Shown one piece after another: positions 3,672-64,000 of a DNA stretch of 64,000 nt; within the stretch, counting starts at the first letter, position 1; every line of letters begins with the position of its first letter. This DNA is from Octopus sinensis (Eukaryota). Both the position numbers and the translations under genes were made by a program. The notes below the pieces were generated by a model that saw only the letters and a list, made by a program, of their open reading frames with translations, had not been told where the DNA came from and ran no database searches. The stretch is taken from assembly GCF_006345805.1 (NCBI RefSeq), contig NC_043003.1, positions 103,044,001 through 103,108,000 of the forward strand, written 5' to 3'.

Positions 3672-3709
<38 letters not shown>

Positions 3710-3710
3710 T

Positions 3711-3767
<57 letters not shown>

Positions 3768-3991
3768 AAAGCTCATTTGGAAATGTCAGAAATAATTAAA
3801 GATGTATGGCGGATGTGTTGTCATGTTTTGCTGATCCCGGATTTCCATTCTCTCTCAGTTCACCTTTCCTGCCGTTTGCAACCTCCTCACCACCTGACGC
3901 TCTTCACTCCGCACGAGTTATCATACCTGTTACTGTGACTTTATATTCTCGGCAGCAGCCAACGATAATGCAGAAATATGACATATACATG

Positions 3992-4026
<35 letters not shown>

Positions 4027-5080
4027 AACATATGTACAACTGTACGTGTATGTATGTATGTATGTATGTCTTTGCGTATGTGTATCTCTGTGTGTGTACG
4101 TGTGTAGACGTGGATGAACATACGGTGTATCTGGCGTACTTTATCTCCATCGACACTTTTGTAACGTAGCTGCTTACTTTGCAAGAAAAAGCAAAGAGCA
4201 ATATGATAGTCGCAAGATTACAATCTACAAAAGAAAAAGATTCATGATAAAAAATAAGGCATCATTGAAAAAAAATCATCAAAAATTATAAAAATACAAA
4301 TGTAAGCCGATTATTGTTGTTGTTGTTGTTGTTATTATTATTAATATTATTGTGATGAGCATCATCATCACCATCATCTATACTACTACTCTACTACTAC
4401 TATTACTACTACTACTACTACTACTACTACCACACTACTACTACTACTACTACTACAAAGCTCATTTGGAAATGTCAGAAATAATTAAAGATGTATGGCG
4501 GATGTGTTGTCATGTTTTGCTGATCCCGGATTTCCATTCTCTCTCAGTTCACCTTTCCTGCCGTTTGCAACCTCCTCACCACCTGACGCTCTTCACTCCG
4601 CACGAGTTATCATACCTGTTACTGTGACTTTATATTCTCGGCAGCAGCCAACGATAATGCAGAAATATGACATATACATGCACACACACACACACCACAC
4701 ACACACACACACTCACACAACATATGTACAACTGTACGTGTATGTATGTATGTATGTATGTCTTTGCGTATGTGTATCTCTGTGTTGTACGTGTGTAGAC
4801 GTGGATGAACATACGGTGTATCTGGCGTACTTTATCTCCATCGACACTTTTGTAACGTAGCTGCTTACTTTGCAAGAAAAAGCAAAGAGCAATATGATAG
4901 TCGCAAGATTACATCTACAAAAGAAAAAGATTCATGATAAAAAATAAGGCATCATTGAAAAAAAATCATCAAAAATTATAAAAATACAAATGTAAGCCGA
5001 TTATTGTTGTTGTTGTTGTTGTTATTATTATTAATATTATTGTGATGAGCATCATCATCACCATCATCTATACTACTACT
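3672..5080. repeat. Near-perfect tandem duplication, ~689-bp unit, bounded by (CTA)n tracts
   Basis: The ATG at 3806 recurs at 4495. In the non-repetitive parts the two copies differ only by 1-nt indels. Confidence 0.9.
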
Positions 5081-5091
5081 CTTACTGCTGC

Positions 5092-5135
<44 letters not shown>

Positions 5136-6629: not shown

Positions 6630-7260
6630 CCAAAGGTGCAGAAGGATAGAGCAAGGAATCCATGAATCAGGTACTCCAAATCAGTCGGAAGGAAGAAGAC
6701 GGTCCGTGTGAGCGTACAGTAAATAGTCAAATCGAATACTCGAACATTGAAAATAACAAACAAGGGAATGTGCACGTGGAATGTATGAGTTTAATACTCG
6801 GCAAAAAGGGGGAGTCTTTTGACGTTCCGAGTATAGCTCTTCATCAAAAAGGAAAACGGGAAGTGAAGAGAAGGAAAAATGTCACTAACAGCACGTGTGT
6901 AGTTATATTCATGAAGTGACCGGTAGTGGAAAGAGATAGAAGTTTTGGAGTGTACAGGAGAGTGCGATGATTGCCGGTTTGTGTGTGTGTGTGTGAGTGT
7001 AGTAATATCTGTGTGCGTGTGTTTGTGTTTATGCGAGTGATGTATGTATAAGGGTATGAGTCCACAAGCGTGTTAGTGGCTGGTATTTGATTTGGTCGAG
7101 AGAGGCGAGAGACCAGATGAAAAGTGTGTGAGTGGGTGGGTGTGTCTGTGTGTGCGTTTGAGTGTGTGTACACCCCCATAGTCCTTCGTGACCGAAGCGA
7201 GGTTTCTCCTCTCTCTCTTTACATACCCATAAAACATGAGTACCTCATAACCTCGCAGAT
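6630..7260 (-). mobile_element. 3' UTR/pLTR remnant of a Penelope-like element with a decayed HHR (6816-6850)
   Basis: Minus strand ttTGATGA-agagc tata ctc-GGAA-cg-TC-aaaag resembles the end of the PLE at 44260-45680. Confidence 0.5.
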
Positions 7261-7272
7261 TATATACATATA

Positions 7273-8625
7273 TATACAGTGTACATTTAAACACATAAGA
7301 AGCATCCATCATAGGACTCCATGCCCGCTAGAGAGAACAGTTAAATTCCATACCACTATTAGGGATAAAATTTCGAAGGGAATGAAAAATATAAACATTT
7401 ACCATCTAACTCCTGGTCCAATGGTTTCAGACTCTTTTAGCAAATAAAATAATTTGCTAGGCGAAATCTTCTTCAGCAGGTACACATTAGATTAAATATA
7501 TATACACGAAGAAATCCAGTATATGCTCCATGCGTATACATTCTAATTTTTCAAATCCATCGCGCAAGCTCAGCTCCTTATCAGCAGTAAGCAAAAATGC
7601 CGGTTTTTCAATTCGAAAATTATCCAGAAAAATATGATCAATAATTAATAATATCAAAGGGTAATCAGAAATATTAGAAATTTCCATTACCAGTGGCCTG
7701 GCGTGTAAAAAGATTTGTCAATAGACGATGTTATTCATATAAATACAGTGTACATTTAAACACATTTAAACACATCATAGAACTCCTTGCATGCTAGAGA
7801 GAACAGTTAAATTCCAAACCACTATTAGGGATAAATTATTAATTATCGATCATATTTTTCTGGATAATTTTCGAACTGAAACGCGGGCATTTTCATTTAC
7901 TGCCGATAAGAAGCTGAGCTTGCGCGGTAGATTTGAAAAATTAGAATGTATAAGCACGGGGCATATATTGGATTGCCTCGTGAATATATATTTAATCTAA
8001 GGTGTACTTGCTGAAGAAGACTTCGCCTAGCAAATTATTTTATTTGCTAAAAAAAAGTCTGAAGCCATTGGTCCAGGAGTTAGATGGTAAATGTTTTTAT
8101 TTTTCATTCCCTTCGAAATTTTATCCCTAATAGTGGTTTGGAATTTAACTGTTCTCTCTAGCGAGCAAGGAGTCCTATGATAGATGCCTTTTATGTGTTT
8201 AAATGTACACTGTATTTATACGAATAATATATAATCTATTGACTAAATTTTTTACACGCCAGGCCACTGGTAATGGAAATTTCTAATATTTCTGATTACC
8301 CTTTGATATTATCAATTATTGATCATATTTTTCTGGATAATTTTCGAATTGAAAAACCGGCATTTTTACTTACTGCCGATAAGGAGCTGAGCTTGCGGGG
8401 TAGATTTGAAAAATTAGATTGTATAAGCACGGAGCATATACTGGATTTCTTCGTGTATATATATTTAATCTAAGGTGTACCTGCTGAAGAAGACTTCGCC
8501 TAACAAATTATTTTATTTGCTAAAAGAGTCTGAAACCATTGGTCCAGGAGTTAGATGGTAAATGTTTATATTTTTCATTCCCTTCGAAATTGTATCTCTA
8601 ATAGTGGTATGGAAATTAACTGTTC
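7273..8625. repeat. Non-coding ~473-bp HHR-containing repeat: ~1.2 units on the minus strand (7273-7836) joined to ~1.7 units on the plus strand (7837-8625); retrozyme/pLTR-like
   Basis: Core CTGAAGA recurs at 8011 and 8484 (period 473). An inverted copy lies at 7412-7480. Peptide-level repeats in ORFs 7487-7687(-), 7791-8000(+) and 8273-8473(+) confirm the homology. Confidence 0.9.
8480..8548 (+). ncRNA. Type I hammerhead ribozyme, intact core, GUC cleavage site after 8544
   Basis: cctg-CTGAAGA-agact(..hairpin..)agtct-GAAA-ccattgg-TC-cagg: stem I cctg/cagg, stem II agact/agtct, stem III A-cca/tgg-T. Confidence 0.85.
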
Positions 8626-8629
8626 TGCA

Positions 8630-25129: not shown

Positions 25130-28100
25130 CACATATAAAGCTATTACAGAAGAACCTGAAACACAAAGACACCTCAGGGAGAGAATGGCACTGGAAAAAA
25201 TGAAAATGGAAATAGAACTTCTGAAATTGAGGGCCCAAACGAATGAGGATAAAATAAAATCCACCGATGAAGATATCAACGAAGAAATTCGCAAAATGAC
25301 CCAAGGCCCAGATCAGAGAAGTTCTCCAAACTATGGAAAGAGGACTGTGAAAAAGAAGAACTAAATCTCTCCAACGCTGGGAGAAAAGCGCCACTTGGTT
25401 CTCAGACTATGAAGCCGTCTTTCAAACAGAGCACGCCTCCAACAACCCTTTCCAGAAAATAAGAAAACCAAAACAACACCCAAACACCGATACACACCTG
25501 TCTAAAAATCGGAACCTTCACTACTATCAAAAAAAGAATACAGGACCTAACCCTAACTCTGTAAGCAGCCAGCGATACAATATCAGGAATACCCCACTTC
25601 AAGCAGAGAAGGATAAATCAACACCCACAGCATAGACACTGCAACCTCATCCCCACCCAAAGGAGTTACCAACGAAATCTTCGTCCCATTAACCGGTTAA
25701 ACAACCATGCACAACAAACCCACACCACTTGCAATGATTACCAACGAAGGCCTCCTAGAACACCACACCCGATATGGGATATCGGGATGCTCTCCTCAAT
25801 ACTGCTCCAAGAACACACACCATAAATCACAACAGGAGACCCCTAATCAACAAAGAACAACTATATACTAGCTACCGTCCCAACCACCGCATTCATTTTT
25901 TAGACCCAATACGCAAACACAGAGACACAAGATAGCACCAAACAAGCAGGAGGAACCAAAAGTAATAAAAATTATTAATCTAACTCACAAGGAACTAACA
26001 GCAAACCAAATAAACATACTTTCCAAAGGACTCAAGTTTACACCCACCCCACAAACACCCCAACTACAATGAAATGAAAGAAGACATCGCAGAATTCTGC
26101 AGAAAATTAAGACTTACGGAGCTGAGCTATACGATAAAACAACGAGGACGAATCGTTAGCCAGAAATAGGAGTAACTACACCCCCTCGAAAGGTAAGAAT
26201 AAAACACTTGATGATTTCTGTGACCACATATCAAATTACCCATATCAACATATGCACAAACAAAAACACAAACCAAACTTCAGCAAAAAAGAATGGGCTG
26301 AGTTGAACAAATTAAAACTAGATAAAACAATAACAATCAAAGAGGCCGATAAAGGGAGTGCTGTTGTCTTAATGGATACGACATTTTACATAACTTTGGT
26401 ACTTTCTATGCTGGAAGACACAACATACTATGAAAAGGCACAAAACTACAGTCAACAAAAATAATGAGGGAACTAAAATCCATATTAAACCCATACAAAG
26501 CAGGGCTCACCGACAAAGAATATGATTATATGACCAATTTCACAAGTAAAACTAGCCAATTCTACGGTATACCTAAGATCCACAAAAGTGAAAAAATAAG
26601 CAACGCATGCAAGATAGCTACAGACAAAATAATTAAAGTCCCTAATCCTAATGACCTCAAATTGAGACCCATAATAGCAGGTCCCGCATGAAAACCCACC
26701 GCCTCAGTAACTTTTTAGACAGCCCTGTTAAAACCACTCCTCAAACATGTCAAAAGCTATATAAGGGACGACTTAGATATGCTCAATCACCTACCGAATA
26801 CTATAAACAAAAACACCATACTGGTATCCTTCGATGTAGTCAACCTCTACTCCAATATCCCCCACAACCTAGGACTAGAGGCAATCCAATTCTGGCTAGA
26901 GAATCACGCCAACGAACTACCACACCGCATCAAAAAAGAATTTGTGATAGAAGGGGTAAATTCATCCTGGAAAATAACTTCTTCGCCTTCAATGACAACT
27001 TCTACCGACAAAAATCGGGGACTGCGATGGGTACACGAATGGCCCCCTCCTTTGCCAACCTAGTCATAGGATACCTAGAGATCAGTCTGTATCGTAAGGT
27101 TCTAGAAAGATATGGCAGCCCTTTCTCCATCTACATAGAAAACAACTGGAAGAGATATCTAGATGACTGTTTCATCCTTTGGCATAAAAATATAGAAAAA
27201 CTCATAGAATTCCAGAAAATTTTAAACGGACTGGACGTAAACATCCAATTCACGATGGAATATAGCCAACAACAACTCCCCTTCCTCGATATCCTCATTA
27301 AGAAAGCTAATAATATAATAGAAACAGACATATACTATAAGCCTACAGACTCTAAGCAATATCTTCCATTCAATTCATGCCACCCCAGACACACCAGGAT
27401 GAATATCCCCTTCAATCTAGCAAAAAGGATATGCACTATAGTCTCTAACGCAAACACCAGAGACACACGACTACAAGAACTAAAAGATACCCTAATCACC
27501 AGGAACTATCCACCTTCACTTATTGACAATGCATTCAACGTGCCCTTCAACTTAACATCAAGGAACTGAGACATCCCAAATCAAAGAAAAACTTACAACC
27601 AAAAGCCTTACCATACATCTCCACACACAACCCTCTCAATAACGAAGCCTTCGACACCATCCTCCACAACATACCCCTCCTAAAAAAAGACCACAGAATG
27701 AACACAATCCTCCAAACACACACGATCATAAAAAGCAAAAGACAGCCTAGATCCATGAAAAGTCTCCTACACAAGCCCGAATTCACTCTTCAACACAGAA
27801 GCCGACAGTAAAAAAATGTGGAAGACCCAATTGCGGGATATGCGACTATCTAATCGAGGTTCTGAGTTCTCCTTCAAACAGGGACAACGTTTTACAGTGA
27901 AAAGCAACTTCACATGTGCTTCGGAGAACCTAATATACTCACTAACCTGCTCCGGGTGTCAAGAGCAGTACATAGGCCAAACAAAAAAAAATGGTTTGCG
28001 TAAACGAATGGCCCTGCACAGATCCCAGATAAAAATTCCCCAAAACAGAAAAATAGCTTTTAGCCAACACATAGATACTTGCGCCAACAAAAAAACACCA

Positions 28101-29021
28101 AACTTCAGAATTTTCCCCCTCTACCAATTTAGGGACGATACAACCTCGAGACAACGAATAAGTAAAGAAAATCTCTTTATTACAAAATACAAGCCACTTC
28201 TTAACGGGTCTACGACAAACAATTAATATACCTCAGCTTTAGAATAAAAGAAAAAAATATATATACACACACAAATACTACACTCCATAGAATCCATTAC
28301 TAATCAGCCCCTTCATAGCTATATTTACACCCATTCATATTCTCTTCTCTGTTTTCTTTCTTCTTCTTCTTCTTCTCTTCTTCTTCACCATCATCGTTAT
28401 CATCATCATCGGCATCATCATCATCGCCACCATCATCACCACCATCTTCTTCTCCTCCTTCTTCTCTTCTTCTTCTTCTTCATCATCATCGTTATCATCA
28501 TCATCGTCGTCATAATCATCACCACCATCACCATCATCGTCATCTTCTCCTTCTCCTTCTCTTCTTCTTCTTCTTCTTCTTCTCTCCACCCCTACCCCTT
28601 AAGTTTGTCACTAATGTTTTTTAGTATAACACCTACGCTAATTCTATAAACAAGCCTGTCAATATAAATATTCTCCTGAATTGAACTGAGACTGCCAGCC
28701 GCCACTGACCATTCAAAATACGACCATCAGGGCACTCCCCGATTCTCCCACCCCCCTTTCCTCACCAGCCTTCCCTCTACTACCCTACCAAGAACTCACA
28801 ACTACCTCGAACACACAAGTGCAAACAAGGGAGTCAGAGAAAGGCAGAATGCCACTTAATCTGAACACTACATAGAAATATTCTTTTAAAAAAACTTTTC
28901 TTCTAATTTTTCTAATTTAATTATTAATCGTTACAGTTGAAAAGGTCTCAAAATGACCGAAACCGGTACTGAAATGTTCACTATAAAATTATTTTAGCAT
29001 TTTCTATTTTTTACTTGTTTT

Positions 29022-29027
<6 letters not shown>
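25130..29027 (+). mobile_element. Near full-length Neptune-type Penelope-like element (RT + Cys-rich linker + C-terminal GIY-YIG), frameshifted, flanked by (TA)n
   Basis: LSKGLKFTPTP, IKEADKGSAVVLM, FYGIPKIHK, LRPIIAGP, SFDVVNLYSNIPH, GTAMGTRMAPSFANL, WKRYLDDCF, LPFLD, SCHP, NFTCASENLIYSLTCSGCQEQYIGQT..RKRM..H. Terminal HHR at 28934-28971. Confidence 0.95.
28934..28971 (+). ncRNA. Minimal type I hammerhead ribozyme with U3-A8 core variant
   Basis: cag-TTGAAAA-ggtc tcaaaat gacc-GAAA-ccgg-TA-ctg. Confidence 0.7.
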
Positions 29028-29062
<35 letters not shown>

Positions 29063-29630: not shown

Positions 29631-29656
29631 CCTATAAAGAGAATTATATATAAGGA

Positions 29657-29889
29657 AGGCGGCGAGCTGGCAGAGACGTTAGCACGCCGGGCGAAGAGCT
29701 TCGCGGTATTTCGCCCGCCGCTACGTTCTGAGTTCAAATTCCGCCGAGGTCGACTTTGCCTTTCATCCTTTCAGGGTCGATAAATTAAGTACCAGTTATG
29801 CACTGGTATTTAATATAATCGACTAAATTCGTTTGTCTGTCCTTGTTTGTCCCCTCTGTGTTTAGCTCCTTGTGGGTAGTAAAGAAATA
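29657..29889 (+). mobile_element. tRNA-derived SINE family B with a long target-site duplication
   Basis: aggcggcgagctggcaga..gagttcaaattcc (A/B boxes). tataaagagaattatatataagg is repeated on both sides (~29633-29655 and ~29890-29912). Confidence 0.85.
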
Positions 29890-30162
29890 TATAAAGAGAA
29901 TTATATATAAGGGAAATGTTTATGTATAAAAATAATGCATATAAGTCGAAACAAATTGTTGATATTTGGATGTTTTAATAATCGTTTATGTTATCTTATG
30001 TTATATCATAGATCGGATTGTCAATTCTATCTCACTATTTTATCTTACCTGTGTAATTTGCATTATACCTATATTTATATGTTATTGAACTGACGTACCA
30101 GTGAACTGGATGTTTCACACACACACACACCTGATGGAATTTTTTCCTTAGTTTGTTAATTG

Positions 30163-34330: not shown

Positions 34331-34971
34331 ATGCCCTTCTGTCTTGGTTTTGTATGAAATAGTTTGCCTAACTATATGAAAACCTTTGTAACCAATAAAA
34401 GGATTCATTTGAGCGAAAGAGAGAATGCCATGAAGTTCTTTCTTCCAGTTCTTTAAGTTCTGGTTCCGAATCCTGCCGAGGTGAACTTTGCCTTTCATCT
34501 TTTCGGAATCGATAAAATAAAGTACCAGCCCGCCACTTTTATTGCTCGTAACATTAACACAAAACAAGAAATGTTGCGGGAAAACCACAACAATTATAAG
34601 CTACACTTCCCAGTGATTTTTTTCCTCAGCATCAAGTTAGTAGATTCGTTGTCATAGAAGCAGTGAGGATGTTGTTGCGGTTTACGGCTATACAAAACAT
34701 TGCATTTGACTCCACAATTCGAGAATGAGAAACCTCTTTGAAGTCGACCGACGCAACATACAGAAAAGTCTGCCATCATTTGCGGATTTTCATTATCATT
34801 GCAATGAGTATATTGTCTTTGGTGCATTCTGAGTATTAGCTGCATTGCTTTTGTTCAACAGACAACAGTTTATTTTACCTCATATGTTTCCATATTTTCT
34901 CAGTTAAAATACTCATCAGTAATTTCCACAGCAAACAATCGAAGCTATAATCTTCTATTGCATGGTTTTTT

Positions 34972-35041
34972 TCGTTATGGTGTAGTGGTTAAGAGCGCGG
35001 GCTACTAACCCCAAGATTCCGAGTTCGATTCCAGGCAGTGA

Positions 35042-35100
<59 letters not shown>

Positions 35101-35315
35101 GCAACAACAACAACAACAACAACAATAATAACACCGAAAAATACCTTAGGAATGAGAACCCAGGTTCGAAATTTCCCCAAGACACCTGATGAAGGCTGGA
35201 GGGTATATCAGCCGAAACGTTGTGTTAAGAACAAACAAGATGAGGACAAATATACGTCAAATGTAAATAATGCAAATAATGTACATAATTCCTCATCTCT
35301 TAAATATAGAACTGT
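34972..35315 (+). mobile_element. SINE-like element: tRNA-like head + (AAT)n + hammerhead-containing tail
   Basis: Head 34972-35043 with A box tggtgtagtgg and B box gagttcgattcc. (AAT/AAC)n at 35046-35131. HHR at 35182-35225. Confidence 0.8.
35182..35225 (+). ncRNA. Minimal type I hammerhead ribozyme, intact core, GUU site
   Basis: acac-CTGATGA-a-ggctg(gagggtatat)cagcc-GAAA-cg-TT-gtgt. Confidence 0.85.
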
Positions 35316-36099
35316 ATCTCAGTAATGTTTGCAGTTTAACATTCTCTAATACACCGTCAAATTTTCATGATATAGCTACGAATTTGTCAATTTATCTCAA
35401 ATAAAATGGCTTCATACCTTTTGAATTAGATTTTTTTAGTCACTTCAAAATATTTCCCTTTTCATCTTCTAAATTTTCAGTTATAACAGCTTTTTCCCTG
35501 GCCATATCATTTGCATAAGTTTTCCGTAGAATATGAAGTGACAACAATTCCATCTCCATCGTTTATATTGTTCGTGCCTCTTCCGTTTCCCTATCAACTT
35601 CTTTTCATTTCATCCAATCCATACCCTTTCCAGTTAACCCTTCAATCTCATTCGTTCCATGATCGACTCCCATCGCCTCATCATTGTTTTGTCTTTGTAT
35701 GATTTCTATTTCAACAAGTGTTAGCCAACTTGGTTCATTAACCTATTTTCTATCAACTCAAACATAGCATTGTTTTTCAAGTGCGTGAGCGTCCTTCCTC
35801 CGGCACCGCTGCCTTCTACACTCTAAGCTTCCGAATTTCATTCCATTAAAACTATATCATCCACTCGTAGCACTTTACTGAAGTCGAGCAGTTATTGAAT
35901 GACGGTCGGGTAGTGTTTGCTCTTGCGCAGTATACCCGTAAAACGCGTCAATTTCCCCGGCGGTGCCCTCACCATTTATATCGCTATTGTTCAGTAGTTC
36001 ATTGTTAAGCATCGTATATCAATTACTTACTTCATGATGCCACCTCATCCTGAGATCATGGAGCCACTGAAAATGTTTGCCGTAGCTGAAAACTTCAAC

Positions 36100-40546: not shown

Positions 40547-41781
40547 TTAGAAATAATATATTTCTAAATCTCTCAGAGAGATTTATACAGTAGCAGCACG
40601 ATGAAGTGATAGCATGTTGTCAACTTAATATGACAGTCACACAAACATGAAGTGTCCCCAGAAACAAGAGGTGGAACAGGAGGTAGAACGGGAGCAGCAG
40701 GAGGAGAAGGTAGAGCAAGGTATGGTGGGGAAAGGCCAGGTAAAGGAAATAATGCAAGCAGTAGAAGCGAAAGACCCAGTCGGAAAGAGAAAGAAAAGAA
40801 GGCGGAAAATACATTATCGCCTCCAAAAAGCCCGCAGAAAAAGAGAAAAGGTAATTTGGAGGAGATGCAGATAGATGGCACAGAAATAACAAAAAAGAAA
40901 ATTGCAGAAGAGAGAAAAAAATGAAAACGAAAATATGCAGAAAGGAGCAGCGAGGAGCGGCAGTAAGATGGACACCCAAGTACCAGGAACATGGGGAGAG
41001 AGTGGAGATGAAAAGTGGGAAGAAGTGGCGAAAAGAAGAAATGTGAGGAGGATGGTGGAATACAAGAAGAGTATAGAGATAGAGAGGAGGATTACTAAGA
41101 TGAAAATGTTACAAGAGTTAAGATAACGGGAAGTGAATATACATAGGATGACAGAGCGGTTTTGCTGGAGAGTGACAGAGCGGATAAATTGGAAAAGCTG
41201 TTTGGTGAGCGGATTGAATTGACAAACCTGTGGTTTCGATGTGACGATCTGCCACCAGTGGTGCCATCTGAAGGCATTGTGCAATACTTTGTAGATGAAT
41301 ATAATAGTAAGTAAAACTGCAAAATTTAAATGTGCTTAAAAACAAAAAGAACCATAAACTGTTACACGAACATGAATTGCATAAACAGTTAAATGACACG
41401 GTTTGCGTATGGGGTGCAAACAAAACATTTCATTTTTCTCATTATATCACTATATTCATATTCATTCGATTTTCGTTTTATGTACCCCACTGTATAGTGT
41501 TGTCTGTCTTTGTTCGTCCCTTCTTTCTAAGAGCTTTATGCTTATAATAAAGAAAAAGCTAGCAAGCCATGTTACTCCAGACTGATGATGAGCAATGACT
41601 CCGAAACTAGTCTCTGGGCGCGGGTTTTGCTGGGTGGAGGTGATTGTCTCCCCTTTGAAAACATAAGGACACAGGAAATATGTCAAGTCCAACAGGAAAC
41701 GGTGTTTCTTAGGGCTAAATAACAGTAGCATTCTTCCCTTTTATGGGGCTGTCACATTAAGTTGACAACATGCTATCACTT
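40547..41781 (+). mobile_element. Non-autonomous HHR-bearing element with a 12-bp TSD and 33-bp inverted repeats (PLE-derived?)
   Basis: taataagttagg at 40535-40546 and 41782-41793. Inverted repeat 40604-40636 / 41749-41781 with 1 mismatch. HHR at 41577-41617. Confidence 0.8.
41577..41617 (+). ncRNA. Minimal type I hammerhead ribozyme, intact core, GUC site
   Basis: ccaga-CTGATGA-t gag caatga ctc c-GAAA-ctag-TC-tctgg. Confidence 0.85.
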
Positions 41782-43415: not shown

Positions 43416-43730
43416 AACTCTCAAAATACAAAGACCTGGAAATAGAGGTAACTAGAATGTGGAATCTGAAAACAGAAACAATTCCTATCATAGTAGGTGC
43501 ATTAGGCATGATAAAAAAATATTCAGACAAATACATAACAAAAACACCAGGACTTACAAACACATATAACATACAGAAAATTGCACTACTAGGCACTGCA
43601 CACATCCTACGCAGAACACTTTCCATACAATAACCATCAGAGCATCACAACAAATCACAGCACATACCCAAGGCACACAGAGCTGTGCTCGGTAGTGAAG
43701 TGAAAGCACGCTATAAAAATAAAACTACTG
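43416..43730 (+). mobile_element. Short, young 3' copy of the Dong-like LINE in a (TAA)n tract
   Basis: Nearly identical to the reverse complement of 287-601. Preceded by ~300 bp of (AAT)n and followed by aataatgata. Confidence 0.9.
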
Positions 43731-43929
43731 AATAATGATAGTAATAATAGTAATGGTTTCTTTTTTAGCCACAAGGCTCTATTATATACTACGTATATAA
43801 TGTTGAAGTGTGTTAAACATTAAAAAAAAATTATATTCATAAAGTTCAATGAGCTCTTTCAAACGTTCGTGGTAATCATCAAATTTCAAAATGTATTAAC
43901 TGACAGTTGACGACTGTAGTAAAATGACA

Positions 43930-44120: not shown

Positions 44121-44259
44121 AGTTGAAACGCTGTTTGATTTATTCTTTCAGCGTACAATTTTCACCAACTTTGACATCACCCCTTCCTTCCTTATTCATA
44201 AATTTAAAAGTATTATTATAGTAGAAAAAATGCAAAACCCAGCAACAGCAGCGGATCAT

Positions 44260-45882
<1,623 letters not shown>

Positions 45883-50988: not shown

Positions 50989-51049
50989 TATATATATAAA
51001 ATAGAGAGATACAAATGACAATCCAATAATTATGAAATAACATTAACCA

Positions 51050-51275
51050 AGGCGGCGACCTGGCAGAGACGTTAGCAAACCGGGCAAAATGCTGAGCGGT
51101 ATTTCGTCTTCCGCTACGTTCTGAGTTCAAATTCCGCCGAGGTCGACTTTGCCTTTCATCCTTTCGGGGTCGATAAATTAAGTACCAGTACGCACTGGGG
51201 TCGATATAATCGACTTAATCCGTTTGTCTGTCCTTGTTTGTCCCCTCTGTGTTTAGTCCCTTGTGGGTAGTACAG

Positions 51276-51280
<5 letters not shown>
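51050..51280 (+). mobile_element. SINE family B
   Basis: Near-identical to 29657-29889 and 60893-61125. Confidence 0.9.
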
Positions 51281-51310
<30 letters not shown>

Positions 51311-57330: not shown

Positions 57331-58222
57331 TTGTCTTGTTTTCCATTTGTTTCTTTCATTGTTGCAAAAAAGTTCATATTCCATGTATTCGTATTTCGTA
57401 TCTCATGTTTTCGTTTTTTAATGTTGTTTTTGTTCCGTGACGTCCTATGCCCACATATGCATATGTATATACGTATAGATGTAAGTATGTACATTTACGT
57501 ATGTATATATGCATATATATATATATTATTTATATCATTATATGATTGAACGCTACGAATTCCTTTTCCAAGTAGGTTTAATCTTAATAATTCTGATGCG
57601 ACACTATTCTATCCTATTACTCTTTCGTTTTCTCTCTTCCTTTCTCTTATTCTTTTACCTCCCCTTCTTCCCCTCTCGCTTTTTTTCTCTTATCATTTCT
57701 CCAAATCTTTTCCTCTCCCCTTCACAGTTCTCTGCCTGTCACTCCCTCTCCCTCACTATTTTGCTTTCGAGGCTCACACTAACTTTTCCTAACTTGTGCG
57801 TCTTTCTTTCTGTCTGTTGCAGCTGGAGGAATGAGACGCATTCTTGTCTGTCTCCTGTCCAAGCTTGTTTCTCCGTGTTAGCCATCTCACCTCGTTTAGG
57901 CTTAGCAGCCGTCGCTGTTTGTTTTTACTGTCCTCTTTTTGTTACCAATTTTGACCCTCCACAAAATGTCAAATTTTATTTAGTTTGTTTTGCGGAAGCA
58001 ACTGTTTTATCGAAGGCGTATTTTGTCTTTGAATTGCTCGAAATACGGATTAGAAAGCAGCCGACTGATGAAGGGTCGTTCGTTATGTTACTTGTCTTGT
58101 TTCCCATTAGTTTCTTTCGTTATTGCAAAAAAAAACAGTTCATATTCCATGTATTTGCATTTCGTATTTCATGTTTTCGTTTTTTATGTTGTTTACGTTT
58201 CGTGACGTCCTGTGCCCACATA
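57331..58222 (+). mobile_element. Non-coding element with ~130-bp terminal direct repeats between (TA)n tracts
   Basis: ttgtcttgttt..gttcatattccatgtatt..cgtgacgtcct.tgcccacata at 57331-57456 and 58092-58222. Confidence 0.7.
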
Positions 58223-58848
58223 TACAATATATATATATATATATATATAATATATATATATTATATATATATATATATATATAATATATATATATATATT
58301 CTATATATATATATATAAGAACCTAAATCCTTCAAAGGGATTTTTTATTATAATACGTTCTAGTGGAGAGTATATTGCTTTTTTTTTTTTTTTTTAATTA
58401 GTTAACTCTATAATTCTTAGTATTAAATAGGGGTTTTTTTCATTAACTTATCTGTTGGTTGATTGTCTATTTTCCTTTTTCTTTTGTATAGACGGTAATT
58501 GCAAATGTCGTTAACAAATATTTACATATTGTGTATTGTCATTTGAATTAATGCTTAAGTGGCTTTATATATTTTTCTGTTTTTGATCTATCTGGCGTTC
58601 GGTTAATTATTATTTAATTGTTTGCTCCTTTTCGGGATATTGTAAAGGTCTTCATATTTTTGTTGGCAGAACTCATTCATTCCAATAATGAATTCCCAAA
58701 CAAAACCTAATTTGTGATTTCAAAACGATAATATTTCGTTTTGTTTTGAATTAATTAGACTTGGAAACAACTTGAAGAGTTTTTGTTGGACATATGCACC
58801 AACTTGGAATAAACTAACGTCTACGCTTCTATTTTACTTTTCTTTATT

Positions 58849-60073: not shown

Positions 60074-60892
60074 ATATACCAAAGCTATATATGAAAGCTT
60101 TCATATATGTACACACAAACTCATACATGCACACATTCACACACGCACATACTCACACACACACATGCACTCAGACATACACACACACAGCCACAGTTTC
60201 AGGTAGAGAGATTATGTAAGACGCTCGATAGGAAATAAGCCCATAAGTGATCCATACGTGAAAATAAAAATATATAGCGTCCATATTTATACAGCTTGTC
60301 TCCATGAAGTCTATCGCAATTTTTTGAACTTACTCTTTCTGAGTTATCATTTTTAGTAATTGCGGTATTTCGCTTCAGAAGACATGAAAAGCTAGGAAGA
60401 GGATGGTGGATGATGTCGGATGAGGGTGAATATATAAATAAGAGAAATAACAATGCCATAAACCCCATAAAGTAATGATAATTGTAACAACAATAATAAC
60501 AACAATGATAACAATTTATAAAATGAAGAAAGAAAAGCAATAGCAACGGTCAAGGACAACATCTATGGGAATGACAACGACAATAATAACTAAAATAACA
60601 TCAACAGAAAATTACAAAATACAAAAACATCATAGAATAACGACAACCGTAATAACGCCAACAATGAGAATAAAATTATAAAATCCTCAATTGTAGCGGT
60701 GAAGAGCCACAACAGCAGCAAGTAAACAGGAATAAAAAGCAGAAATCTAACATCAGAGAACAAGAACAGTCATGAAAATAACAAGAAGTGGGATTCATAA
60801 GGCCAGAGTTTAATCCGGTTTCTATGGCGTATAAAGTGACTGACTTTACAACGCCCTCGCCTGCACAGGACGCCGATACGTTGCAGGGTTTA

Positions 60893-61125
60893 AGGCGGCG
60901 AGCTGGCAGAAACGTTAGCACGCCGGGCGAAATGCGTAGCCGTATTTCGTCTGCCATTACGTTCTGAGTTCAAATTCCGCCGAGGTCGACTTTGCCTTTC
61001 ATCCTTTCGGGGTCGATAAATTAAGTACCAGTTACGCACTGGCGTCGATATAATCGACTTAATCCGTTTGTCTGTCTTTGTTTGTCTTCTCTGTGTTTAG
61101 CCCCTTTTGGGTAGTAAAGAAATAG
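60893..61125 (+). mobile_element. SINE family B inserted in a family C-like SINE, with TSD-like gttgcagggtt
   Basis: gttgcagggtt(t)aa occurs just before (~60880) and just after (~61130) the element. Confidence 0.85.
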
Positions 61126-61574: not shown

Positions 61575-62165
61575 ATTGGTTTTCAAATGTTGGTACAAGG
61601 CCAGCAATTTTTGAGGGGAGGGTAAAAGTCGATTATATCGACCTCAGCACTTCACTGGTACGTATTTTATCGACCCCGAAAGGATGAGAGGCAAAGTTGA
61701 ACTTGAACTCAGAAGATAAGGACGGACGAAACACCGCTAAGCATTTTGTCCGGCTTCCATCAATTCGCTGTCTTTGTAATAACATTTCTACTTTAAGTAC
61801 AAGGCCTGAAATTTTGGAGGAGGAGGAGAAGGAGGAGGTAAATCGATTACATCGACCCCCAGTTCTTGATTGGCACTTATTTTATCGACCCTGAAAGAAT
61901 GAACGGCAAAGTTGATCACGGTGGAATTTGAACTCGTAATGTAAAGACCGATGAAATGCAGCTAAGCATTTTGTCCGGCATGGTAACGGTTCTACCAGCT
62001 AGCTACCCTTGTAATAACAATAATAATGGTTTCCAATTTTCTCACAAAGCCAGCAATTCTGAGGAAGGGTAAGTCGATCACGGTGATCAACTGTTACTTA
62101 TTTTATCTAACTTGAAAGGCTGAAAGGCAAAATCAGCTTCGGTGGAAATCGAACTCAAAGTAAAA
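61575..62165 (-). mobile_element. Three tandem diverged SINE B-related copies
   Basis: Repeated acaaggcc..tcgacc..ttttatcgaccc.gaaag..ggcaaagttga..gaactc motifs. Confidence 0.7.
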
Positions 62166-63350: not shown

Positions 63351-64000
63351 GCAGTTAGCTGCATTCATGAGCAGAACTTCGTAGTTGCAATAGGAAAGAC
63401 AGAGTAAAACGATGGCGCATCTATGGGATAGAAGTATAAGTCAGTTAAAGAGTGATTCTTTGATAATACGAGAGCTTTTTATTTTGGAAACGGATAGTGA
63501 TAGCAGCAGCAGCAGCAGTAGTAGCAGCAGCACCGTTCCATGTGAGGGAAAAGTATCCCATAATGCACTTGTTCTCCACGTATTTTATGAAATATGGAAT
63601 ATAATAATGATAATCCTTTCTACTATAGGCATTGGTGGGGGAGCTTAGTCGGTTACATTGACCCCAGTGTGTAACTGGTACTTATTTCATCGACCCCGAA
63701 AATATGAAAGACAAAGTTAGGCGAAACGCCACTAAGCATTTTGCCTGGCGTACTAACGATTCTGCTAGCTCGACGCCTTAATAATGACAATGATAATGAA
63801 AATTGTTGTATACAATGCTATGGTGTACTACAACTCATCAGAAAAAAAGGAGCCAAAAATCGCGTAAATAGTACATAGAATATAATAGAATAAGTCCTTA
63901 AAAAAGGTGAGAACATCACTGAAAAAAAGCAACTCTTCAAATATGTCAAAAAGAGTATGGTCAATATATTAAGAATTGGCTTGGCATTTCAGTTCAGTAC

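Follow-up and report, generated by a model that had tools for sequence, protein, structure and literature searches.

The 64,000-nt stretch of Octopus sinensis DNA analysed here (the window; NC_043003.1, positions 103,044,001 to 103,108,000) contains a ~340-bp repeat that ends in a hammerhead and hairpin of the Penelope-like element (PLE) type and is probably a non-autonomous element with a Pol III head, mobilised by a PLE. From 5' to 3', the copy consists of a tRNA-like head, an (AAT)n/(AAC)n microsatellite, a minimal type I hammerhead ribozyme, and a hairpin tail ending at 35314-35317 (Table 1). An initial annotation had described the locus as a tRNA-headed SINE with its own PLE-type hammerhead, and re-examination of the sequence found every part that it named in its place. 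Its start, 34972, is replaced by 34976, where loose read ends show that the family sequence of this copy begins. The head and the body each occur once in the 64-kb window, as neighbours in the same orientation, and no second copy of either was found within it.

Table 1. Features of the window copy (positions in the window)
Feature	Position	Strand	Basis
tRNA-derived head, 5'-clipped in the window copy	34976-35045	+	Ser-like by ARAGORN; boundary from loose ends
A box	34978-34988	+	sequence motif
Anticodon-like loop	35002-35008	+	sequence
B box	35023-35032	+	sequence motif
Internal (AAT)n then (AAC)n microsatellite	35046-35133	+	repeat scan
Linker with small hairpin and B-box-like motif	35134-35180	+	folding, sequence; high depth in 4/4 runs
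Minimal type I hammerhead, PLE type	35181-35226	+	motif search; core design as in RT+GIY-YIG elements
3' hairpin, 9-bp arms (35238-46/35290-98), A/C-rich loop	35238-35298	+	folding, z -2.89
Optional ~30-nt terminal tail, between short and long ends	35287-35317	+	read ends

The element belongs to a dispersed family of high copy number. Fourteen runs of five organisms share at least 59% of the words of the stretch. The region 34700-35600 was compared with four of the 24 listed runs, three of DNA and one of RNA (X24); six RNA runs (insect, feces, sludge, seawater) that share few words with the stretch were left out. Contigs aligning to the stretch number 34,171, 22,520, and 57,997 in the three DNA runs. 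Summed depth reaches 0.6-3 million over the head and 1.8-8.6 million over the ribozyme, against 7-131 in most bins of the flanks, or 10^4-10^5 times the flank level for both parts; summed depth is not copy number, and division by 31 for word overlap still gives thousands, a crude lower bound. The ribozyme is two to three times deeper than the head (head/ribozyme ratio 0.32-0.45), so many ribozyme ends may be headless or belong to longer PLEs. Most contigs are 90-99% identical to the window copy, and the partial-frequency variants seen within the element, four in 40 of the 105 variant rows, each fall at a CpG. The same insertion is found in organism D at ~94-95% identity (records 17 and 24), indicating that the window copy predates that split. 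Like SINEs, the family is shorter than 1 kb, interspersed, and non-tandem, with unlike flanks at both ends in all three DNA runs. In each DNA run, 626-705 records pass from the long 3' end into dissimilar flanks, which exceeds the minimum of 100 copies for a SINE.

The head bears the A box, B box, and anticodon-like loop that the initial annotation had recognised. It is not called by ARAGORN at default threshold or by Rfam. At 90% of the threshold, ARAGORN reports tRNA-Ser(act) at 34971-35043, one of three calls in the window; the other two fall in (AT)n tracts. A paired A and B box occurs twice in the window and 0.36 times on average in 100 shuffled sequences; by themselves, the boxes carry little weight. 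A cloverleaf was not recovered by MFE folding of the head (z 0.13). Judged by its sequence, the head appears to be a worn tRNA.

The 5' boundary of the family is marked by loose ends ahead of 34976 and 34982/3 in all four runs. Specifically, 303, 285, and 382 records of the three DNA runs carry extra letters upstream of 34976, and the window copy lacks ~14 nt that other copies have at the 5' side of the head. The consensus before 34976 ends in TATGCCCACGGGCA, an inverted repeat with a 2-nt spacer that is missing from the window copy, and the RNA-run consensus ahead of 34983 has an inverted arm measuring 16 nt or more. These statements on loose ends rest on 24 of 1232 rows. Speculatively, the 5' palindrome may reflect snap-back priming of the second strand by the finished cDNA.

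The microsatellite consists of (AAT)18 at 35046-35100, the (AAT)n tract of the initial annotation, followed by (CAA)11 at 35102-35133. Read mapping skips this tract, so the linkage of head and body rests on the window locus and on junction contigs. Pieces starting at 35139-35146, beside the microsatellite, make up 17 of the 24 listed, and the mapping skip ends there too. The motif at 35163-35172 in the linker, previously taken for a second B box, is present; it is at most a putative B box, because the last C of the consensus is missing and no A box lies in range.

The hammerhead is intact, as proposed, with a CUGAUGA core, GAAA, and a palindromic stem III. Specifically, stem I is formed by 35181-85 and 35222-26 (5 bp), the CUGAUGA core lies at 35186-92 and is accompanied by one extra A, stem II has 6 bp, GAAA lies at 35214-17, stem III is a bare palindrome, and cleavage is predicted after 35221. 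A hammerhead motif of such quality occurs once in the window, compared with a mean of 0.01 in 100 shuffles, and the Rfam hammerhead models do not match the ribozyme of the element. Rfam at gathering or E-value thresholds returned nothing relevant to the element as a whole. The ribozyme has the traits described for the minimal hammerheads of PLEs (excerpts of PMC4209133), namely an extra base after A9, G10.1-C11.1, and a palindromic 15.2-16.2, and it lies near the 3' end, as in non-autonomous PLEs. To judge from the letters, stem III should pair only between two molecules. Because monomers of such minimal hammerheads are reported inactive in vitro (PMC4209133, in part) and an anole PLE ribozyme required protein (PMC11167929, in part), folding of the ribozyme would depend on a second molecule or on a protein. 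Of 3690 RNA reads, 264 lack 3 nt of stem III.

A search with the ribozyme core found 48 loci in a metagenome scan and two in a genome scan. These 50 loci have the ribozyme core in common with the element and nothing more; the head sequence matched none of them. As an architecture control, a simple rule found a stem I of at least 3 bp in 19 of the 48 metagenome loci, 16 of which have a palindromic stem III. The PLE proteins of the window match three of the 50 loci by tblastn. The same core and stem II design as in the element is found in the RT+GIY-YIG elements L038, L015, and L028, and L015 ends in (TA)n 84 nt past its core. In PLEs of metagenome contigs, the core is located at L036 1621, L038 3001, L028 1254-1283, and L015 328-357, either between successive ORFs or ahead of a (TA)n end. 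The core-and-stem-II pattern also occurs inside long open frames of GC-rich bacterial contigs (L044 3001-3035, L049 1361-1395, and L050 1501-1538), where it is probably due to chance or unrelated. In viral contigs, three of four element patterns gave nothing and the fourth gave a 20-nt chance match (L051); phages and plasmids contain no match to the element.

The window has a GC content of 30-42% (2-kb steps), is dense in microsatellites, and contains broken retroelements. It includes a PLE with RT and GIY-YIG at ~26138-28226, and the top three named relatives of this RT are two of Octopus bimaculoides (59%) and one of O. vulgaris (66%), with Argonauta next, in keeping with an octopod host as far as a transposon protein can guide. 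Two PLE remnants in the window have their own hammerhead-like motifs, with (AT)n 62 and 97 nt beyond. One is a broken PLE at 25137-29060 (+), whose 3' region contains microsatellites and whose hammerhead, at 28934-28971, is a variant showing the U3-A8 core swap; its (AT)n starts 62 nt past the GAAAC of this variant. The other is a decayed GIY-YIG-like remnant at 44225-45680 (+), with a degenerate hammerhead-like motif near 45555-45590 at its end, the same stem III palindrome as the element, and a long (AT)n tract from 45680. The tail of the element matches none of five PLE-flanking regions of the window, and an autonomous partner was not found.

Several other repeats were observed in the window. 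A second CUGAUGA...GAAAC motif with a 3-bp stem II, at 41577-41616 (+), resembles a worn minimal hammerhead. Direct repeats at 57331-57535 and 58092-58299 (+; 83% identity) both end in (TA)n, and a hammerhead-like half core at 58065, ahead of the second, possibly marks a partial-tandem PLE end. Unrelated dispersed repeats of ~250 bp, 72-92% alike and presumably SINE-like, lie at 29656-29909, 51049-51300, 60892-61124, 61576-62003, 63645-63718, and 34453-34528. An inverted pair of 339 bp (263-601 and 43416-43754; 98% identity) spans 43 kb, and its first member adjoins a zf-RVT-bearing ORF remnant at 572-1105. The segments 3687-5120 and 7257-8626 contain a tandem duplication of 700 bp that is recent (97%), together with a nested block of inverted repeats (90-93%).

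The 3' end of the family is sharp and occurs in two classes. The 3' hairpin folds better than expected, with one of 200 shuffles equally good, and depth collapses beyond 35319. The long end lies at 35314, 35316, or 35317, where 705, 657, and 626 records of the three DNA runs continue into unrelated AT-rich sequence (agreement ~0.4). No poly(A), repeat tail, or return to the head follows 35314-35317 in the loose ends shown, in agreement with the earlier reading that the copy has no poly(A) or LINE-like tail; the simple-repeat 3' tail of SINEs is likewise missing. A target site duplication of at least 5 nt was looked for at the element junctions and is absent, also as annotated. The short class exits at 35272 in 161, 159, and 141 records of the DNA runs and in 1223 RNA reads; the window copy has a 9-nt duplication near 35265, around which alignment may have smeared this class. 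Its loose part in the DNA runs consists of 5-7 family letters and then noise (median 255 letters). When the duplication is allowed for, short-class copies stop ~30 nt early, in the hairpin loop. The two ends lie ~87 and ~56-60 nt downstream of the predicted cut.

An optional tail of 30-40 bp is a PLE feature unlike LINE TPRT (PMC8557442, in part), and the two 3'-end classes correspond to it, with the reservation set by the 9-nt duplication of the reference copy. According to the accessible part of PMC11167929, RT of the anole PLE starts internally at two sites that bracket the tail; one site falls in an AC-rich stem-loop, 85-92 nt beyond the cut (111-118 versus 26), compared with 87 nt for the long end of the octopus family. 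The same excerpts report AT-rich targets in vitro, insertion by ribozyme mutants, so that cleavage is dispensable, and no RNA-seq ends at the ribozyme cut.

Joints within contigs define a further similarity to PLE insertions, in which an inverted 5'-truncated copy stands at the 5' end, unlike in LINE TPRT (PMC8557442, in part). We examined 15 of 169 joints, each present in one to three contigs, and 12 of 85 rows in a table of further joints; some loci may be common to runs X1 and X3. Five of the 15 join opposite strands, and four of these start at the 5' end of the head, running from 34976 to 35189, 35274, and 35281 and from 34983 to 35255. In the joints to 35274 and 35281, the shorter sides of 43 and 36 letters both reach 35316-17, the long end. 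These two joints are inverted terminal-tail copies attached to the head, i.e. inverted 5'-truncated copies beside the 5' end as in PLEs. Deletions join head to body elsewhere in the genome in one of the 15 joints (35012-35163) and in two of the further rows (34993-35269, which keeps some ribozyme letters, and 35009-35232). Skips within the body account for nine of the 15 joints, mostly across the ribozyme, and four of the 12 further rows step back within the 3' part as partial tandems. Unit-length head-to-tail tandems were found in none of the 15 joints examined (169 in all); inverted copies, another of the arrangements proposed for checking, are present. One opposite-strand joint, 35208-35269, stands out by its depth in X1 (748) and X3 (1045), suggesting that a sub-form with an internal inversion has been amplified.

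RNA run X24 is a cDNA library, of which ~6% was read, with 9110 reads aligned; such libraries miss small circles. Depth is equal in both directions, 73% of the reads run on into the flanks, and no read-end pile-up is observed. These reads are passenger transcription, which neither shows nor excludes Pol III RNA.

From the observed composition, abundance, end classes, and inverted pieces, we infer the following cycle. Pol III would initiate at the internal A and B boxes and, because the element contains no T4 run, would read through it into the flank. A PLE protein would recognise the hammerhead/hairpin module of the uncut RNA and nick AT-rich DNA. Internal priming of RT would take place at one of two sites separated by ~30 nt, which would yield the long and the short copies, and a poly(A) or LINE tail would thus be unnecessary. 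A second priming on the other strand would join an inverted 3' piece to the head in some insertions. The ribozyme was likely inherited with the PLE end and would be silent as a monomer. Because copies run well past the cut and a cut RNA would part the promoter from the priming site, cleavage should be unable to set the 3' end. Self-cleavage as the end-forming step, one of the two options originally offered, is rejected: copies run ~87 nt past the cut, the short class ~56-60 nt past it, and RNA ends do not pile up. The end structure of the family and the PLE-type ribozyme support the other option, in which PLE machinery takes the place of LINE machinery in mobilisation.

Other explanations of the locus are less probable. 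The head and body could be separate elements, the one a simple tRNA-(AAT)n SINE and the other a fragment of a PLE pseudo-LTR with frequent insertion into AAT tracts, which would agree with the excess depth of the ribozyme, with the preference of the anole PLE for cutting at 5'-ATT-3' (PMC11167929, in part), and with the failure of mapping to cross the microsatellite. We consider this unlikely, because AAT is absent from the 3' side of the window copy, head-tail junctions recur at other loci (four inverted, three deletion), and the two parts, each single in 64 kb, adjoin and are co-oriented; the clustering of piece starts where the mapping skip ends points weakly the same way. It is similarly improbable that the element is a non-autonomous PLE that captured its tRNA-like head, now a relic, and owes its transcription to Pol II read-through or to a copy upstream. 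Such a relic would fit the X24 reads, which ride in longer transcripts, and A and B boxes are an indication rather than proof of Pol III use (PMC3531059, in part); the 303, 285, and 382 records that start together at 34976, fitting an RNA start there, and the absence of an internal T4 run count against it.

Retrozymes and Sm-alpha invite the reading that the ribozyme cuts multimers into monomers or circles used as templates, and the core of the window copy is intact, the schistosome precedent exists (PMC6765202, in part), and the partial tandems in the 3' part could be its trace. The initial label of a retrozyme hybrid is nevertheless a poor fit and the reading quite unlikely, since the family consists of dispersed monomers, the window holds a single hammerhead unit of the element rather than the tandem units of a retrozyme, none of the examined joints places a head in tandem behind the 3' end, the sequences flanking the 3' side differ among copies, whose ends lie away from 35221, X24 shows no RNA end pile-up, and minimal hammerhead monomers were uncleaved in vitro (PMC4209133, in part). 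An ordinary LINE-mobilised SINE with a PLE fragment as passenger would account for the tRNA head, the size, and the high dispersed copy number, and octopus LINEs are abundant (PMC13282606). The sharp end lacking poly(A) or a simple repeat, the two end classes, and the inverted terminal pieces make it very unlikely. The terminal hairpin, subterminal inverted repeat, and inner microsatellite may resemble those of DINE-1/HINE. A Helitron-type non-autonomous element would also fit the palindromic extension at one end, the 9-bp inverted repeat near the other, and the absence of a TSD, and is most improbable in view of the co-oriented tRNA head and hammerhead, the bimodal ends, and the inverted terminal pieces.

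The SINE-like elements Sm-alpha and Sj-alpha are said to have been described originally by Ferbeyre 1998 and Laha 2000, and octopus tRNA-derived SINEs OK, OR1, and OR2 were reportedly described by Ohshima and Okada 1994. The schistosome elements combine a tRNA-derived promoter with a hammerhead (excerpts of PMC6765202, PMC2770079, and PMC8490949). Thus, the combination that the initial annotation called unusual is present, but a tRNA-SINE with a hammerhead has a precedent in Sm-alpha/Sj-alpha (PMC6765202 and PMC2770079, in part). In both cases a tRNA-derived Pol III promoter and a type I hammerhead are joined in a short high-copy retroposon. Sm-alpha, as far as those excerpts go, is related to tRNA-Gln, has a canonical cleaving ribozyme, is often tandem, and loses the promoter position on cleavage. 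Unlike Sm-alpha, the octopus family consists of dispersed monomers with a minimal PLE-type ribozyme, ends past the cut, and PLE insertion marks; its bare palindromic stem III and the lack of an Rfam match set it apart from a canonical, monomer-competent hammerhead. The excerpts of PMC6765202, PMC2770079, and PMC8490949 name no PLE partner for Sm-alpha.

Metazoan non-LTR retrozymes are likewise non-coding, with a type I hammerhead and a proposed PLE dependence (PMC7761336 and bioRxiv 10.64898/2026.07.22.740005, in part). They are tandem repeats making circular RNA (PMC7761336, in part), whereas the octopus family is dispersed with a tRNA head; the words 'tRNA' and 'promoter' are absent from the retrozyme preprint bioRxiv 10.64898/2026.07.22.740005. 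MRC1 (PMC8557442, in part) and the short non-autonomous Heliconius Penelope (10.1101/596502, in part) resemble the element in being ORF-less with a PLE-type 3' end and insertion structure; a Pol III head is undescribed for them in these excerpts, and they usually match an autonomous family, whereas no such match was found for the octopus element. SINEBase defines SINEs by LINE RT dependence and a simple-repeat tail (PMC3531059, in part). The element is short, dispersed, high-copy, and headed by a tRNA-related sequence like tRNA-derived SINEs, but LINE RT dependence and the simple-repeat tail were not seen. TRIMp3 elements (Cassandra, Helenus, Ajax) similarly pair a small-RNA-derived Pol III promoter with parasitism of a non-LINE retrotransposon (PMC10886601, in part). 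They depend on LTR elements (LTRs, PBS, PPT, 4-5 bp TSD), and the octopus element would be the PLE counterpart; 'Penelope' is absent from PMC10886601.

Full-text literature searches found no description of a tRNA-headed element mobilised by a PLE, nor of an octopus SINE with a hammerhead; they did not extend to subscription papers, Repbase, Dfam, or the SINEBase supplement, so that the family may already be named. The accessible parts of PMC4758252, PMC4824008, PMC6962438, and 10.1101/596502 contain nothing on it. The 2026 repeat annotation of O. vulgaris assigns 11.6% to SINEs and 6.83% to PLEs, and 'ribozyme' is absent from its text and supplement (PMC13282606).

On balance, we lean towards regarding the tRNA-headed PLE dependant as a third kind of Pol III-driven parasite, after LINE-dependent SINEs and LTR-dependent TRIMp3. 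It would number thousands to more than 10^5 copies in the genomes of octopods, where it has probably been listed among the unclassified SINEs. Sm-alpha could belong to this kind without having been recognised as such. SINEs are defined as LINE parasites, and a PLE-marked tRNA-headed family would extend the SINE strategy to a third retroelement class. If this is true, a 180-nt PLE end suffices for mobilisation in trans and would provide a minimal template for the cycle of PLEs, which is poorly understood. The family also bears on the role of the PLE hammerhead, as the ribozyme is kept in a highly successful family whose copies seemingly derive from uncut RNA. Finally, thousands of ribozyme motifs would ride in octopus transcripts, and part of the 'unclassified SINE' fraction would be misassigned.
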